The position numbers were made by a program, and so were the translations under genes. DNA of 57,827 nucleotides from a virus (lineage: Duplodnaviria > Caudoviricetes): the IMG/VR virus record IMGVR_UViG_3300025536_000018, positions 1 through 57,827 of that record, one strand, 5' to 3'. Numbering within the stretch: position 1 is the stretch's first letter; the number at the start of each line of letters is the position of its first letter. The notes below the pieces were generated by a model that was not told the origin of the DNA, did no database searches, and saw only the letters and a program-made list of their open reading frames with translations. Below are positions 366 through 57,815 of this stretch, in pieces.

Positions 366-398
366 CTAGGGTGCGACTCGGAAGTTAGTTCTATGTGT

Positions 399-1187
399 CT
401 AGGGGTAGAGTAGCTTGACCGCCTCCAGGCCCGCCCGCTCCAGGTTCGTTAGGTCCGCCCTGCCGTCCAGGCTGGCCAGGGCCTCCCGCCATAGCTCCAG
501 GCGCTCCAGGCGTAGGGCCTCCCGTTCCTCCCGCTCCTTTGCCAGGCGGTCCCGCTCTATTGCCCGCTCCGCATCGCGTGCCGCCTCATCGGCCTTGCGC
601 TTGGCCAGGGCCGACTCCATCTCCGCAACCGTGGGAAGCTGGCCACGTTCAAAGGCCGTCCAGGCCGCCGCCGCCATGGCTTCCTTAGCCGTGAAATGCA
701 CGGGCCAGAATATCACGCGACTCGGTTCGCTATGCCCGCCGTTAAGCCACCGCTTAGCCTCAAACGAGTCCACCCGACTCCCGGATATGCAAGGCCCGTT
801 TTCATAGTAGCTATGCCGTTCCTCTGGACCCTTCAGGCGGTAGAGCTTCCAATGCGTGCCCCAACCCGAATCGCAAGACACATAGCCCCGCAATTCGCCG
901 TCAATCATCACGTCATAGCTAGAGCGCTGATAGGCGTTTATCGGCTCCGCCCGCTTCGCCAGGTCCAGGCGCGGCAACGTGGCGAGCTTCGCCTTGCCTA
1001 TGGCTTGCGCGCATTTAGGGCACGTCGCCAGGCGCGGGGAATCGAACGGCGCGGCCCGGTCATGTAAGCGCGACTCGCCGCACCACGATTCGGCCATGCC
1101 GCGCCCCGGATCATCCGCAAAGGGGTATTGATCCGGACTCCATCGCCGGAAGGCGCAAACCTTATGAACGCCGCGACTCCTGCCCAT
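399..1187 (-). CDS. Hypothetical early protein (Cys/His-rich N-terminus, C-terminal coiled coil)
   Basis: ORF 399..1250; ATG at 1187 overlaps the upstream stop (TAATG). Confidence 0.75.
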   Translation of the reverse strand: MGRSRGVHKVCAFRRWSPDQYPFADDPGRGMAESWCGESRLHDRAAPFDSPRLATCPKCAQAIGKAKLATLPRLDLAKRAEPINAYQRSSYDVMIDGELRGYVSCDSGWGTHWKLYRLKGPEERHSYYENGPCISGSRVDSFEAKRWLNGGHSEPSRVIFWPVHFTAKEAMAAAAWTAFERGQLPTVAEMESALAKRKADEAARDAERAIERDRLAKEREEREALRLERLELWREALASLDGRADLTNLERAGLEAVKLLYP

Positions 1188-1639
1188 TAGACCGACTCGC
1201 CGATGATATGGGGGCCGCCCTCCAGGCCGGAATAAAGCGCCGTTTGCCACGGGATCGAATAGAAGCGGAAAGCGCCCGCCGTGCCCACGGCCTCAAATAT
1301 CGCCGCGTGCTGGCAATCGCCCGTTTCCTGATATCCGACAAGCCGGAAGCCGTGCAAGGCGGCCACCTTATCGGCCACCGGCTCCAGGCGCTTCCTATAT
1401 CGCTTGTCAGTGAGGAGTCGCACGCCGGAAGCGTGCAAATCGCCCCGCACTAGCGGCTTGTGGCGCTCCAGGGCGTCCAGGGCGGCCCGCACTTCGTCCG
1501 CCGTGGCGGCGCACCTGTTGCCGCTCCAGCCCCGCGCTAGGCGGGTGACGTGATTCAGGGCCTTGCGGAGTCCTATCACGTTCGTTTTTGTGACGTTGCC
1601 CGACTCAATCGCGGCAAGGTGACGTTGCATTGCGTTCAT
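1187..1639 (-). CDS. Hypothetical early protein
   Basis: 150-aa ORF with AAGGAG RBS in the repeated leader. Confidence 0.8.
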   Translation of the reverse strand: MNAMQRHLAAIESGNVTKTNVIGLRKALNHVTRLARGWSGNRCAATADEVRAALDALERHKPLVRGDLHASGVRLLTDKRYRKRLEPVADKVAALHGFRLVGYQETGDCQHAAIFEAVGTAGAFRFYSIPWQTALYSGLEGGPHIIGESV

Positions 1640-1670
1640 TTGATTCGCTCCTTTGAAAGCGGGTTAAAGT

Positions 1671-1865
1671 TCAATTGTCGCCAGGGCGATTCGTGCCGCC
1701 GATGAACCGGCCCGCGCCGCCCTGAAGGCGAGTCGCGGCGATATCGTCCCGGCGTTGCGATTCCGCACATTCGCGCTTGATCCGGCTCCACAGTGTCGCG
1801 CCGCCGATGATAGCGGCGAAGGTGACGAGTCCGACAAGGGCGGCGATAAGGTCAGGTCCAAACAT
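1671..1865 (-). CDS. Small membrane protein
   Basis: One hydrophobic segment (LIAALVGLVTFAAIIGGATLW); GGAG RBS favours ATG at 1865. Confidence 0.6.
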   Translation of the reverse strand: MFGPDLIAALVGLVTFAAIIGGATLWSRIKRECAESQRRDDIAATRLQGGAGRFIGGTNRPGDN

Positions 1866-1898
1866 TCGAATCACTCCGTTCCGTTGTTACTCACTCCG

Positions 1899-1933
1899 TA
1901 TAGCGGAGAAAGTCCTAACAGGAAGTTAATTCC
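1899..1933 (-). promoter_or_regulatory. Left-arm promoter cassette: palindrome plus CtrA-like box plus GCTATA -10
   Basis: CTAA-N7-TTAA at 1915-1929, palindrome variant at 1921-1933, -10 at 1899-1904. Confidence 0.6.
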
Positions 1934-2408
1934 GGCCGATTATCTCCGCCCCGGCAAGGTTGCCCTCCCGGCCGTCCGCCACCCGATAGCCCCGGATCAT
2001 AAGGAAGCCGGAGTCCACTTCATAACCAGTGACGCAACAAACGACTCCGCCGATTGCCCGCACTTCCTGCCCTACCGTGGGCACGGGTTGCTTACCGCTC
2101 CACACTGGCCAGCCGCCACGGTTCGCCAGGCGCTTGCCTTTCCACTTCGCTTTGACGTGGGGCGGGATCAAGCCGCGCCGGATATCGGCCGCCACCTTTG
2201 CCGCCCGCTCCGCTTTGACATACTCCCGCAACTTGCGAGTCGCGTTAGGGCCGTGGAAGGCGACAACGTGGCCCGTTGCCGGGTTGAACCGATAGAAGCG
2301 GGAAAGGTGCGCCGCATCGCCGCACTTGATCCACTGGCCAGGCTGGAGCTTTGCGCGGGCGCTATCGTCCAGGGTCCAGATATCAGGGGCAGGGGTAAAC
2401 TTAGCCAT
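1926..2408 (-). CDS. Hypothetical early protein
   Basis: 160-aa ORF with GGAG RBS. Confidence 0.8.
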   Translation of the reverse strand: MAKFTPAPDIWTLDDSARAKLQPGQWIKCGDAAHLSRFYRFNPATGHVVAFHGPNATRKLREYVKAERAAKVAADIRRGLIPPHVKAKWKGKRLANRGGWPVWSGKQPVPTVGQEVRAIGGVVCCVTGYEVDSGFLMIRGYRVADGREGNLAGAEIIGRN

Positions 2409-55702: not shown

Positions 55703-55902
55703 GACTCTTTGCACTCCAGTTGCGCCGCTCGAACCAGGGAGGACAGCGCCACGAAGTTCGAGCCTTCTTCGTATGGCACCTTCAGGATCATCGTGTCGGC
55801 CGTGACGCCGGGATGTTCGGTGAAAGTGAACTCGGCCGCGTCGAGACGCCGTTTGAAGACGGGGAGCTTCCATCGGTCGATTGCTATTGCGGCGGTCTTC
55901 AT
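55699..55902 (-). CDS. Small hypothetical protein
   Basis: [21 protein letters not shown]. Confidence 0.7.
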   Translation of the reverse strand: MKTAAIAIDRWKLPVFKRRLDAAEFTFTEHPGVTADTMILKVPYEEGSNFVALSSLVRAAQLECKES

Positions 55903-56249
55903 GTCTTCCTCCAATTGATGTCGCTGCTTAGGATCGCACGGCCCTGATAGGTGTGCGGAGCCTGGCCCGCAAGCGCTGCCATGGTGCCCGCCTCGATACG
56001 GCCGACAAACCGGCCCTTGCTGGTCCAGAAGCCATGCTCATCGCCGGGGCGCTCTTCGTAGCACGCCACGTCGCCTAGTGATCGCCGTAGCTCGGCGTGG
56101 GAGCGGAATCGAGTCTCTCGGCCGTGCTCGACGCCATCGCGGCGGATCGCGCATCCGACCAGGTGCTCCTGTGCCTTCGTGATGAGGCCCACCTTGCCCT
56201 GGTCAAACCGCTTCTCGGCCCACGTCTTCTTGCGTTTCTTCAGCTTCAC
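55899..56249 (-). CDS. Hypothetical protein (GF.TS.GRFV.R.EA motif)
   Basis: GGAGG RBS plus GTG. Confidence 0.7.
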
Positions 56250-56460
56250 GATTGGTCCTCCGTTCCAGTTGCTTGACCAGGCGCACGGCGAGCTTCGTGG
56301 CTTCCATGCTTTCCTGGTCGATCTCGAATGTGGTGCGCCGGTCGCCGCATGACGGACAGAGTCGACGGCGGCGAAGAGCCATGATCGGCTCTCGGACGAT
56401 CCGCACATCCTTGACGTTGGTTTCGCCGTGGCCGCACTTCGGGCAGGGGAAGTAGGCCAC
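56203..56460 (-). CDS. NrdR-like Zn-ribbon protein lacking the ATP-cone
   Basis: CPKC...T.V.D.R......RRRR.C..C..R.TTFE matches the NrdR N-terminal signature. Confidence 0.8.
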
Positions 56461-56684
56461 TAGATGCCGTCCTCCAGGTAGCGCCGCCCCTTCTCTGTGG
56501 CGACATAGTGCGGAATCTTCGCGCCTTTGTGCGTCTTGTATGGCGACGGGTGGTGTTCGATCTCGGCGTAGCCCTGACGCAACAGCTTGTGCGACACACC
56601 GGCATTGACTTCTTGCGCGGCGAGCGGCCGACGCGAGATCGAACGAAGGACGCCTTCCGCGTGATCGGATAGCGGCTTAGCCAC
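56460..56684 (-). CDS. Small putative winged-helix protein
   Basis: LLRQGYAE...[11 protein letters not shown]. Confidence 0.65.
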
Positions 56685-56985
56685 GGGCCGCCCCGAACAG
56701 ATGACATACCACGATTCCTTCAGCTTCGATCACCGACTTGTCGCCATAGGTGATCCGCTCATAGACGATGTGGCCGCCTTCCGTGGTCGGATCGTCCAGT
56801 TGGAGGATCAAGCCGTCGCCCCCGTCCAAGGCACCAGGCGGTGCGTCGAGAACGGCTTGCTGCCACAGGGCTTTGACGAGAGATGTGCGATCCGAGAGGA
56901 TGGCGGGCGTGATCTCGACAGCTACCAGCCGAGCGCCAGGCCCGAACGCGGCCTCCAGGAACTCATCGAACGGTGTCTTTGTCAT
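56677..56985 (-). CDS. Hypothetical protein
   Basis: MTKTPFDEFL; AGGA RBS. Confidence 0.65.
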   Translation of the reverse strand: MTKTPFDEFLEAAFGPGARLVAVEITPAILSDRTSLVKALWQQAVLDAPPGALDGGDGLILQLDDPTTEGGHIVYERITYGDKSVIEAEGIVVCHLFGAARG

Positions 56986-56995
56986 GCCGATCATC

Positions 56996-57361
56996 CTACT
57001 CGCTTTCGTCGGCTTTGCCAAGGCGGCGGGCGGCAACACCGTTGTTCGTCATCTCGACGCGGTAGGTCTCTCCGCAAGCCTGGCAATCGACGCGGCGGTG
57101 GGACGGATCGGCCGAAGTAACTTCCTTCAGACTGTTGAACGTCCGACATTCGGGGCACACACCTTGCATCATCGCTGCCGCATCGGCGCGGGGCCGATAA
57201 GTGAGATCGGCGGCGATCATGGCAGCGAACCAGAACGCAATGGAGGCGCTGGTGGTGGCTGGCACGATCCAGGCGATGCTGGAAAAAGGCACTCCAGCGA
57301 GCGCGAGAGCCAGGAAAGCGGCGGTGGCGGAGATAGCCGCGACGGCGATTAAACGGTGCAT
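56996..57361 (-). CDS. Membrane protein with a Zn-ribbon
   Basis: Two TM segments plus CPEC...CQAC; GGAGG RBS. Confidence 0.7.
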   Translation of the reverse strand: MHRLIAVAAISATAAFLALALAGVPFSSIAWIVPATTSASIAFWFAAMIAADLTYRPRADAAAMMQGVCPECRTFNSLKEVTSADPSHRRVDCQACGETYRVEMTNNGVAARRLGKADESE

Positions 57362-57815
57362 TTTCGTCCTCCGAATCAGTGATACGATCCGTGTAGCCGA
57401 TTCGGGGAGACCTGACAAGGGTTCCGATAGGGGCACCACATACACGGTTCGATCAAGCTACACGGTCTAATCGGCTATGCGGACTGGTATATGATTTGAC
57501 CACCAACGGCATGGGAAGCCGTAGCTACGCAAAACCTGTAACCGATTTTAATTGGAACCAGAGCAATTAGAACCTGAATATCTGCACCGATTAACAGCGT
57601 TGTATTTAATAGCTTTTTTAGCGTCAGGTTCCGAAGTTCCAATAGTTCCAATTACTCTGAAAGACAGTGTATTTTTTGACAACATTCTCTCCAAATCTAG
57701 GGGATAGTCCAGCTACATATCGGATCGGAACCTGACTACGCTCTTCGGATAACCGTATGGAAGTGACTTCCGGCACCGGGGCCATGTCGATTCACGGAAA
57801 AAACATCGAAAATCG

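Follow-up and report, generated by a model that had tools for sequence, protein, structure and literature searches.

A 13-bp palindrome spaced evenly along a tailed-phage genome, and an orphan ParB/KorB-family protein as its candidate reader

Noc of Bacillus subtilis is a ParB paralogue that acts without ParA and has palindromic sites scattered over the whole chromosome, approximately 70 sites on 4 Mb; it ties the DNA to the membrane via an N-terminal helix. Cluster A mycobacteriophages, with their stoperators, and phage phiC31, with its inverted repeats, carry tens of copies of one short operator, including copies inside genes. These are networks of temperate phages, with the immunity repressor as reader; stoperators are asymmetric and oriented with transcription. 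The KorB operator OB of plasmid RK2, as set out in a mini-review, has 13 bp in palindromic order around a single central base, TTTAGC(G/C)GCTAAA, and occurs at twelve sites on the approximately 60 kb plasmid; plasmid R751 has kept these sites in both sequence and position, and their distance from promoters runs from a few bp to more than 1 kb (PMC13768133). The mini-review and a second paper describe KorB as a clamp dependent on cytidine triphosphate (CTP) that can slide as far as 1.5 kb and that KorA or TrbA locks at promoters (PMC13768133; PMC11790492). An orphan ParB homologue has also been described in phages, as the ParB-like activator of thymine dioxygenases, encoded near nucleotide- or DNA-modification-type genes (PMC13229309). 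Here we describe a lattice of 13-bp palindromes, (c)GGAAGT-W-ACTTCC(g), in the tailed-phage record IMGVR_UViG_3300025536_000018, together with the orphan ParB/KorB-family gene at 14480..15676 (+) of that record. We class the system as a KorB-OB type network in phage form.

The window is the entire IMG/VR virus record, 57,827 bp, linear, rated 98% complete and with a G+C content of 59-63%. Of cultured phages, the Erythrobacter phage records PQ394075.1 (R16L, locus L005 in our set) and PQ394074.1 come closest to it, with 69% coverage and 68.8% identity when 8 kb of replication genes are used as query. Next come Sphingomonas phage Carli and the Burkholderia phages BcepNazgul and AH2. The Erythrobacter phages R34L1 and R34L2 are assigned to Casjensviridae, beside Carli and BcepNazgul, in the paper describing them. 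Our approximate map of 73 genes is built from codon-position G+C and tblastn conservation against R16L. In brief, the left arm holds small minus-strand genes, followed by a plus-strand block from 6.1 to 16.2 kb with GapR and the ParB-like gene at its end, a long block on the minus strand for lysis, tail, head, terminase and replication, and a primase block on the plus strand. A Pfam scan of 74 window proteins gave no ParA/CbiA-type family, as the earlier note on this DNA had claimed, no KorA family match and no integrase or lysogeny module.

The likeness to KorB-OB concerns both protein and site. The phage encodes a ParB-family protein with a central helix-turn-helix (HTH) that matches the Pfam KorB domain and the KorB structures 8qa9 and 1r71, and the site is a 13-bp palindrome with a single centre, dispersed in many copies over a replicon of about 60 kb and kept in position in distant relatives. 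Unlike RK2, the phage has 38-41 sites instead of 12, three times the density, and they are evenly spaced and lie mostly in genes. The replicon is a tailed phage without sign of lysogeny, neither a ParA/IncC partner nor a recognised KorA/TrbA homologue was found among its 74 proteins, and the phage protein bears a tail rich in lysine, alanine and proline and an N-terminal domain too diverged for Pfam. Noc shares the fold, the lack of ParA and the palindromes scattered over a whole chromosome, but the site density is far higher in the phage. ParABS systems have the same protein fold and a palindromic site; they differ in having ParA and a centromere cluster instead of an even spread, and the phage motif is unlike canonical parS, as had been stated earlier. 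Stoperators resemble the lattice in the many copies of one short site across a phage genome, also within genes, but the phage site is palindromic and evenly spaced and lysogeny genes were not found. The activators of thymine dioxygenases are likewise orphan phage ParBs near nucleotide-type genes (PMC13229309), but the window protein has an HTH and the lattice of Carli exists without that gene cluster. We found no published description of the motif or the lattice; motif strings turned up only in unrelated contexts, none of them phage among the matches listed. The word "phage" is absent from the KorB mini-review (PMC13768133), and "palindrom" is absent from the available parts of the R34L1/R34L2 paper and of a ParB-CTPase fold survey, the latter of which mentions phage homologues.

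The exact core GAAGTWACTTC occurs 20 times in the window, against 0.00 expected from 100 dinucleotide-preserving shuffles. At one mismatch or fewer the 11-mer has 41 matches, 20 exact and 21 with one mismatch, against 0.28 expected; the earlier note had the exact copies right and was slightly low with about 18 single-mismatch variants. The word GGAAGTWACTTCC has 30 matches at up to one mismatch (0.04 expected). Allowing up to two mismatches, GGAAGT-N-ACTTCC occurs at 38 sites from 380 to 57771, with zero, one and two mismatches in nine, 22 and seven of them respectively, where about two are expected by chance (20 mononucleotide shuffles). This agrees with the approximately 38 copies first reported to tile the genome. 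The information is restricted to 13-15 bp: a 13-bp core, a weak C/G preference one base outside it and none further out. The geometry is 6-1-6, and the one central base is A or T in 35 of the 38 sites. Half-sites read GGAAGT (44 times), CGAAGT (12), AGAAGT (4), GGAAAT (4) and GGAAGC (3), plus others. No variant copy among the 38 carries a compensating change in its opposite arm. The arms thus vary independently, as expected of a pair of protein half-sites on a DNA duplex and not of a hairpin. In form, the compact palindrome with its independently varying half-sites supports the earlier proposal of a target for a dimeric protein.

The sites lie in both coding and intergenic DNA, as had been noted: 25 of 38 are wholly within mapped genes and the remaining 13 fall between genes or at the edge of one on the approximate map. 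Site centres are intergenic in 11 of 38 cases, compared to 6.1% of bases (P about 1e-5). Sixteen of the 25 in-gene sites share a single reading phase, xxG GAA GTW ACT TCC. All seven E-V-T-S peptides in the proteome are spelled GAA GTW ACT TCS, on a background in which GTA and GTT make up 18% of Val codons and ACT 10% of Thr codons, and the four E-V-I-S peptides are all spelled GAAGTTATTTCC. Four of nine K-L-L peptides use TTA, which makes up 1.4% of Leu codons. These rare codons, the over-representation of the peptides and the positional conservation among relatives described below argue that selection acts on the DNA itself, and the two earlier claims, of forced rare codons and of DNA-level selection, both hold.

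The sites are significantly evenly spaced. In the window the gaps between the 38 sites range from 40 to 3370 bp, as expected from the 0.1-3.4 kb given before, with a mean of 1551 bp and a coefficient of variation (CV) of 0.53. Sites placed at random have a CV near 0.96 and leave a largest gap near 6.5 kb. The observed CV was reached in 0 of 20,000 simulations, and the largest gap has a P of 0.0002. In the first 50 kb of R16L, 30 sites have a mean gap of 1646 bp, a CV of 0.57 (P 0.0006) and a largest gap of 3675 bp; in the first 50 kb of Carli, 33 sites have a mean gap of 1532 bp, a largest gap of 3035 bp and a CV of 0.38, again reached in 0 of 20,000 simulations. Even spacing holds under a null that preserves the numbers of intergenic and coding sites, and the three extra weak 11-mer cores in the window all fall within its largest gaps. 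The even spacing in three phages is a new result and favours a role of the lattice on the whole chromosome.

The window motif is also the top palindrome in R16L, with 18 exact cores in 50 kb, in the IMG/VR loci L006-L009 and L012-L019 and in the metagenome loci L030, L036-L038, L040, L043, L044, L053 and L054, several of the latter being the same contigs as IMG/VR loci. A degenerate form is found in L033 and L035. Across 16 related loci the density is 0.42-0.82 sites per kb. The densest lattice is that of Carli, which uses another motif, GGAAAY-S-RTTTCC, at 40 places in its complete genome. Two further motifs each occur over 20.7 kb: GGAAAT-S-AYTTCC with 12-13 sites in L057 and CGAAGT-N-ACTTCG with 18 sites in L058. 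When coding sites are mapped via protein alignments, 18 can be placed on R16L, and 10 of these have an R16L site within 3 nt; on Carli 16 can be placed, of which 3 lie no more than 1 nt from a Carli site, namely tape measure aa 938, aa 80 of the 30774-31259 protein and terminase aa 289. Several intergenic sites are found at identical gene junctions in R16L. The places shared with R16L and Carli, taken together with the changed motif of Carli, indicate that the lattice is old, has been kept in place and has been altered in sequence in concert. We regard it as very likely that the palindromes are protein-binding sites under DNA-level selection that form an evenly spaced, ancient lattice.

Other palindromes and repeats were seen among the related loci. 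Agrobacterium phage 7-7-1 (L025), which encodes a short ParB and GapR, has eight copies of TACAAAT-S-ATTTGTA between 25865 and 39122, in spacers between TTGAC and TATAAG-type early-promoter elements. The core of this palindrome, AAAT-S-ATTT, is that of the Carli motif; we rejected 7-7-1 as a lattice phage, as the palindrome is limited to the spacer operators of eight early promoters. Phage AH2 (at 5482, 13515, 21686 and 44036) and locus L059, both with a short-form ParB, have sparse intergenic copies of ACAACA-N3-TGTTGT, which may be a KorB-like sparse operator set. In L075, TAGCGC-W-GCGCTA is clustered at 6991, 7017, 7041, 8003 and 8029 near a gene for a 370-aa ParB homologue and looks like a centromere or operator array. 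In R16L, words containing GCGATCGC are strongly over-represented, and 50 kb of it hold 39 copies of GCGATCGCC; the window shows no such excess. Beside its lattice, L019 (IMG/VR, 56,553 bp) has a second repeated word, ACCCCTGTAG, eight times in 20.9 kb. The lattice-free L023 (IMG/VR, 50,164 bp) has GCCGGACACC 21 times and CATTGCCGGAC 11 times in 15.4 kb, an unexplained dense repeat. A search with the ParB of Carli as query found no relative in IMG/VR.

The motif is rare in the bacterial DNA that was searched. In 2.11 Mb of three named Sphingomonadales replicons, comprising a 408 kb Erythrobacter aureus plasmid and two Sphingomonas replicons of 850 kb each, the window motif has one site at up to one mismatch, compared to 31 (same threshold, any centre) in the 57.8-kb phage; the Carli motif has eight sites in the same three replicons. 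Among 401 Pseudomonadota genomes, an exact site is found in six and never more than twice per genome, and a reversed-pattern control is similar. The earlier note had asked if the motif could be a host regulator box equally common in host DNA, and in this partial test of 2.11 Mb and 401 genomes it is not.

We suggest that the reader is the phage's own ParB/KorB-family protein, 398 aa. That it is an orphan ParB-like HTH protein, as first described from the sequence, is borne out by Pfam matches past the cut-offs to PF17762 HTH_ParB (E 2.5e-5) and PF08535 KorB (E 7.4e-5) at residues 149-234; among family members, HTH_ParB is matched in 11 of 12 and the KorB domain in 10 of 12. A GxxRxxA-like motif, DGHTRLDA, is invariant in 21 sequences. 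The AlphaFold2 model has a mean pLDDT of 66.8, with 70-86 over most of residues 30-300. In Foldseek it matches M. xanthus ParB-CDP (7bnk; E 2e-9) and RK2 KorB-KorA (8qa9; E 5e-9, TM 0.62 by target, root-mean-square deviation 4.8 over 223 columns), and further matches are Spo0J (6sdk), Noc (7nfu, 7ol9), sulfiredoxins and the operator-bound KorB DNA-binding domain 1r71. When the ParB profile was run against solved structures by sequence alone, no hit was significant (Spo0J at E 0.3). The fold and the GxxRxxA-like motif suggest that the protein may bind a nucleotide. Two copies of residues 232-310 are predicted to pair with an ipSAE of 0.54 (best control 0.00), through interface residues 246-305. 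At least 95% of contacts are the same between runs, and the partner pLDDT is at least 71; the calibration set had 20 of 30 solved homodimers and 1 of 23 monomers at or above the ipSAE mark. The prediction supports a homodimer joined via residues around 246-305. The C-terminal part consists of a lysine-, alanine- and proline-rich tail followed by an acidic end, and one family member matches the Pfam histone H1-like HC2 family.

As an observation on the side, ParB homologues with and without a lattice (window 15560-15676; L005-L024) have acidic C-termini of the kinds ..LPPKV.SD..VPDDEEVDI, ..DDPDDI, ..PADDL and ..ADDEL, and this tail may be a docking peptide for a partner.

Every locus with a lattice carries the ParB-like protein. 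Its recognition helix reads R-Y-[LI]-D-D in all ten GGAAGT-type loci examined, down to 41% overall identity. The helix is RHLNN in Carli and RGLDD in L058, and L075 and AH2, with their untiled palindromes, have other sequences. A site is found 350-550 nt upstream of the ParB start, before a small upstream gene, in 15 of 16 loci (L037 and L038 among them being near-duplicates), and this conserved position 5' of the gene fits autoregulation. The gene directly 5' of ParB is that of GapR (14142..14444, +; Pfam PF10073, E 3.5e-25), and the GapR-ParB pair is retained in R16L and Carli. The predicted HTH and dimer, the presence in all lattice loci and the conserved helix make this protein the best candidate reader, and we put the probability that it reads the sites at roughly 60%.

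By this proposal, the palindromes would be docking or loading sites at which a dimer of the ParB-like protein binds, the HTH of each subunit reading one half-site of 6 bp. If it behaves like KorB, ParB and Noc, the dimer would then close as a nucleotide-dependent clamp and spread from each site, and the lysine-, alanine- and proline-rich tail might add unspecific contacts to DNA. With sites about every 1.5 kb and evenly kept, a loaded clamp could reach any part of the chromosome. One outcome could be promoter control, via the sites beside promoter-like elements of the left arm and upstream of the GapR-ParB operon; another could be a genome-wide marking or organisation of phage DNA. A bolder form of the proposal, which we hold only tentatively and think somewhat doubtful, is a phage chromatin, in which a ParB/KorB clamp with a histone H1-like tail loads every 1.5 kb and coats or compacts the phage chromosome alone during lytic growth, lattice and reader evolving together. 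As to the coating of the whole chromosome that had been suggested earlier, the even spacing in three phages favours a role on that scale, of which coating may be one form. The partition-type positioning named beside it fares worse: a search with the ParB profile in a genome collection of 185,579 species gave no prophage copy, only three distant short forms in contigs of metagenome-assembled genomes. Together with the lack of a ParA and of an integrase among the 74 proteins, this makes it unlikely that the system serves in classical ParABS partition.

Several observations weigh against the ParB-like protein as reader. The ParB N-terminal domain, PF02195, was detected in none of the 12 members matched, even at E 10. 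Homologues are present in the lattice-free relatives AH2 and L020-L024, so presence of the family does not predict a lattice. These lattice-free proteins are shorter (277-345 aa) and have neither the middle domain nor the tail, but the long form is not perfectly tied to the lattice either, as L057 has a lattice and a different, acidic C-terminal part. L057 also keeps RYLDD with its GGAAAT-S-AYTTCC motif, and the helix alone therefore does not set the specificity. With only about four motif types, and with all the proteins differing, covariation of helix and motif is weak evidence. A Cro-like protein is found in four of the five lattice records searched, including all three complete ones, and the main chromosomes of the true hosts lie outside the named set, which makes the host-motif test a partial one. 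A profile search with the long form of ParB yielded 234 proteins at E up to 1e-5, the best 120 of these 234 being listed.

The Cro-like protein is encoded by the Cro/CI-like HTH candidate gene at 52409..52735 (+), upstream of the primase gene, and the palindromes may be operators of this or another dimeric repressor or activator of the phage, in a network of the kind formed by cluster A mycobacteriophage stoperators or the phiC31 inverted repeats; the ParB-like protein would then be unrelated, or a partner of the KorA-KorB type. We consider this rather improbable. Its likeness to Cro/CI comes from protein-language-model features (scores 0.93-0.94) and is a lead only, to which the earlier claim of a Cro-like HTH is thereby reduced; the GapR and NrdR-type zinc ribbon claimed with it are indeed encoded. 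The protein is conserved in R16L and Carli, and ParB homologues without a lattice also speak for such operators, as does the placement of 19 of 38 sites no more than 140 nt ahead of a mapped start, with four left-arm sites directly before promoter-like elements. However, the presumed recognition helix of the Cro-like protein differs widely among phages with the identical motif (TPNTVHLAVHRG, PEQTVHSAADRG, GNTAVLQAKVRG), where the ParB helix R-Y-x-D-D is constant. Weak homologues occur in two of five lattice-free relatives, no integrase or lysogeny module was found, and a role at promoters only leaves the even spacing and the sites deep in long genes unexplained. The stoperator-like reading with a Cro-like repressor is thus weakened; the Cro-like protein stays a live rival, or a possible KorA/TrbA analogue acting as partner of the ParB-like protein. 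Where phages with a lattice are in culture, their hosts are Sphingomonadales (Erythrobacter, Sphingomonas), and a host protein recruited or diverted by the phage may also be imagined as reader, such as a nucleoid protein or regulator of Sphingomonadales, or GapR, which is common to phage and host and whose gene adjoins ParB in most lattice phages. The A+T-rich motif core in a genome of 61% G+C would suit such a protein. A host regulator is, however, expected to have host sites, and the single site in 2.11 Mb of named replicons and the two or fewer per genome in 401 genomes count against it, as does the variation of the motif between related phages; a host reader therefore seems very improbable to us.

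GapR binds by DNA shape, not sequence. The earlier note listed it together with the NrdR-like product, and as readers both are poor candidates: GapR was not detected in three lattice contigs, which are all fragments and make this partial evidence, and the NrdR-like zinc ribbon (56203-56460) had no tblastn match in any related locus (R16L minus its last 4.9 kb). The DUF7609 protein (6115-6402) is conserved in lattice phages but also in four of five lattice-free relatives and was likewise rejected. Finally, the sites may act by the structure that they give DNA or RNA, or be the targets of an enzyme, for example as hairpins in single-stranded DNA for priming or nicking at the spacing of Okazaki fragments, as RNA hairpins that affect translation at starts, or as targets of the phage methyltransferase or another modification enzyme. 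An even spacing of about 1.5 kb suits a role linked to replication, several sites adjoin ribosome sites or start codons, and among the products of the phage are a primase-polymerase, a methyltransferase-like protein and those of a nucleotide-metabolism cluster. But the stem would have only 5 bp and the loop 3 nt, and changes such as GGAAAT..ACTTCC (four times) or GGAAGC..ACTTCC without compensation fit independent protein half-sites and not a stem. The majority of sites are far from start codons, and neither the methyltransferase-like gene, rejected for its absence from Carli, nor the nucleotide genes have a homologue there. We give this alternative the slimmest chance of those considered.

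The nucleotide-metabolism-type genes form a plus-strand block at 7031-12081, upstream of GapR-ParB, that could make or alter a nucleotide. In brief, 7031-8350 encodes a kinase-like protein (PHROG label kinase), 8295-9272 a ThyX-type thymidylate synthase (PHROG label thymidylate synthase) with an N-terminal extension of approximately 115 aa, 9773-10639 a cupin/cysteine-dioxygenase-like protein (PHROG label "cysteine dioxygenase") with an HDH..H motif, and 10636-12081 a protein of 481 aa (MazG-like) that matches a "pyrophosphatase" PHROG in its C-terminal part. The ParB-dependent thymine dioxygenases (PMC13229309) gave the idea that the sites are targets of thymine hypermodification, which we rejected as a general explanation. 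The "dioxygenase" is cupin/cysteine-dioxygenase-like, without evidence for TET/JBP identity, and AH2 and L020 have the genes without a lattice. Carli has a lattice and no homologue of the kinase, ThyX, cupin or MazG-like genes (E up to 0.01), nor of the methyltransferase-like gene, so the lattice is independent of them.

In the account of individual sites that follows, no strand applies to the 13-mers. In the left arm, 380..392 (GGAAGTTAGTTCT, two mismatches) lies 13 nt beyond the stop of 399-1250(-). The site at 1921..1933 (GGAAGTTAATTCC, one mismatch) is 53 nt 5' of the start of 1671-1874(-) and is followed by promoter-like TTAGGA..CTATAC elements. Exact sites at 2470..2482 and 4579..4591 form the final codons of 2464-2640(-), read as A-E-V-T-S, and of 4573-4800(-), and lie 68 nt 5' of 1926-2408(-) and 66 nt 5' of 4055-4519(-) respectively, each followed by TTAACG..CTAT elements. 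The site at 2668..2680 (GGAAGTTAGTTCC, one mismatch) is 34 nt 5' of 2464-2640(-), and 5746..5758 (GGAAGCAACTTCC, one mismatch) is in a divergent intergenic region 83 nt 5' of 4800-5669(-). By eye, the sites at 1921, 2470, 4579 and 5746 all precede TTAACG or TTAGGA, CTAT-type elements and a conserved leader; the first element begins 2 nt after the site at 1921, 2470 and 4579 and 15 nt after it at 5746. The early region of Carli has the same order, with its motif followed by TTTACG. A crude regular expression for -35/-10-like elements after a site matched only 2 of 76 site orientations, so the promoter association is one seen by eye, at the four left-arm sites and the ParB operon, and we regard it as suggestive. 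The leader ACGCTTTAGACGGAG(C/T)GA is itself conserved ahead of several minus-strand start codons of the left arm (1880-5700), e.g. upstream of 2408, 2640, 4519 and 5669.

In the plus-strand block, 6292..6304 (GGAAGTGACTTCC, centre G) lies within the DUF7609 gene 6115-6402(+) and 8268..8280 (TGAAGTTACTTCG, two mismatches) at the end of 7031-8350(+), 21 nt ahead of the candidate ThyX-like start. Then follow 10026..10038 (one mismatch), within the cupin-like gene 9773-10639(+) at a position shared with R16L; 12184..12196 (one mismatch), intergenic, 24 nt 5' of 12214-12720(+) and adjoining a GGAGG ribosome site; and 13523..13535 (CGAAGTTACTTCG, two mismatches), within 13371-14075(+) and read as N-E-V-T-S. 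The site upstream of the GapR-ParB pair, 14051..14063 (GGAAGCAACTTCC, one mismatch), is 85 nt 5' of the pair and 15 nt ahead of TTGACA. The one at 15883..15895 (one mismatch) ends at the ATG of 15896-16159(+), and a weak 11-mer core at 16818..16828 (GAAGTTCCTTC, one mismatch) splits the largest gap.

In the long minus-strand block, 19253..19265 and 19293..19305 (one mismatch each) are a pair 40 bp apart that flanks promoter-like elements in the 141-bp gap between 19309-20745(-) and 18661-19167(-). The site at 21505..21517 (one mismatch) sits in a 24-bp gap between tail gene 21519-23756(-) and 20742-21494(-), a junction at which R16L also has a site, and the tail gene itself holds a weak 11-mer core at 22793..22803 (GAAGTTCCTTC, one mismatch). 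The exact site at 23941..23953, within 23746-24177(-) and read as P-E-V-T-S, has an R16L counterpart at the identical codon position. This gene overlaps 23958-24191(-); both frames are conserved against R16L, where they are annotated as two separate small genes, and the overlap at 23746-24191 may be a frameshift or a mis-called boundary. Next are 26322..26334 (GGAAATAACTTCC, one mismatch) within 25041-26696(-), read as E-V-I-S; the exact site 27746..27758 at aa 938 of the tape-measure gene, its position shared with R16L and, with the changed motif, Carli; and 31014..31026 (one mismatch) at aa 80 of 30774-31259(-), again shared with both. The site at 32877..32889 (GGAAGTTGCTTCC, one mismatch) lies within 32439-32939(-), with a second weak core nearby at 32918-32928. 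Between the capsid gene 34372-35445(-) and 33903-34307(-), the exact site 34316..34328 stands immediately ahead of AGGAG and ATG, and R16L has a site at the same junction.

In the S49 protease gene an exact site at aa 323 (36917..36929) is shared in position with R16L and another, with two mismatches, lies at aa 58 (37712..37724). Also shared with R16L are the portal site at aa 373 (38468..38480; CGAAGTCACTTCC, one mismatch, centre C) and two large terminase sites with one mismatch each, at aa 655 (40104..40116) and aa 289 (41204..41216), the latter shared with Carli as well. Then come 42556..42568 (GGAAGTAACATCC, one mismatch) close to the start of 41965-42585(-); 44009..44021 (two mismatches) at the end of the helicase gene, 27 nt 5' of 43536-43988(-); 45552..45564 (two mismatches) in a VRR-NUC-like gene, 72 nt 5' of the helicase start; and 46576..46588 (GGAAATAACTTCC, one mismatch) in the methyltransferase-like gene 45799-46797(-). 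The exact site 48889..48901 is one base ahead of the GTG start of the DNA polymerase gene 46722-48887(-), and R16L has a site in the same intergenic gap. The DUF2800 nuclease gene has sites at aa 329 (50213..50225, two mismatches) and aa 290 (50329..50341, one mismatch), both at positions shared with R16L. With one mismatch each, 51758..51770 is at the candidate start of 51201-51758(-), 54306..54318 is in the middle of the primase-helicase gene 52742-55210(+), and 57113..57125 is within 56996-57445(-), 80 nt 5' of 56677-57039(-). The last site, 57759..57771 (GGAAGTGACTTCC, centre G), is non-coding and close to the right end of the record. The five sites that had been said to abut start codons, 48889, 15883, 34316, 21505 and 51758, all do. 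Further sites lie in tiny gaps before the ribosome sites of late genes, which may possibly be just the cheapest location for them.

ParB-family clamps are known from the segregation of chromosomes and plasmids and from the KorB silencing network of RK2. If the ParB-like protein does read the lattice, the ParB-type mechanism would be extended to the organisation or control of an entire viral chromosome, in a phage without lysogeny genes. If phage chromatin of the kind outlined above does exist, phage DNA would be set apart from host DNA, which could mean shielding from nucleases or defence systems, timing of expression, or hand-over between replication and packaging. The changed motif of Carli at shared places offers a natural experiment on how a DNA-binding protein and dozens of its sites evolve together, and cultured relatives exist in the Erythrobacter phages R34L1 and R34L2 and in Sphingomonas phage Carli.

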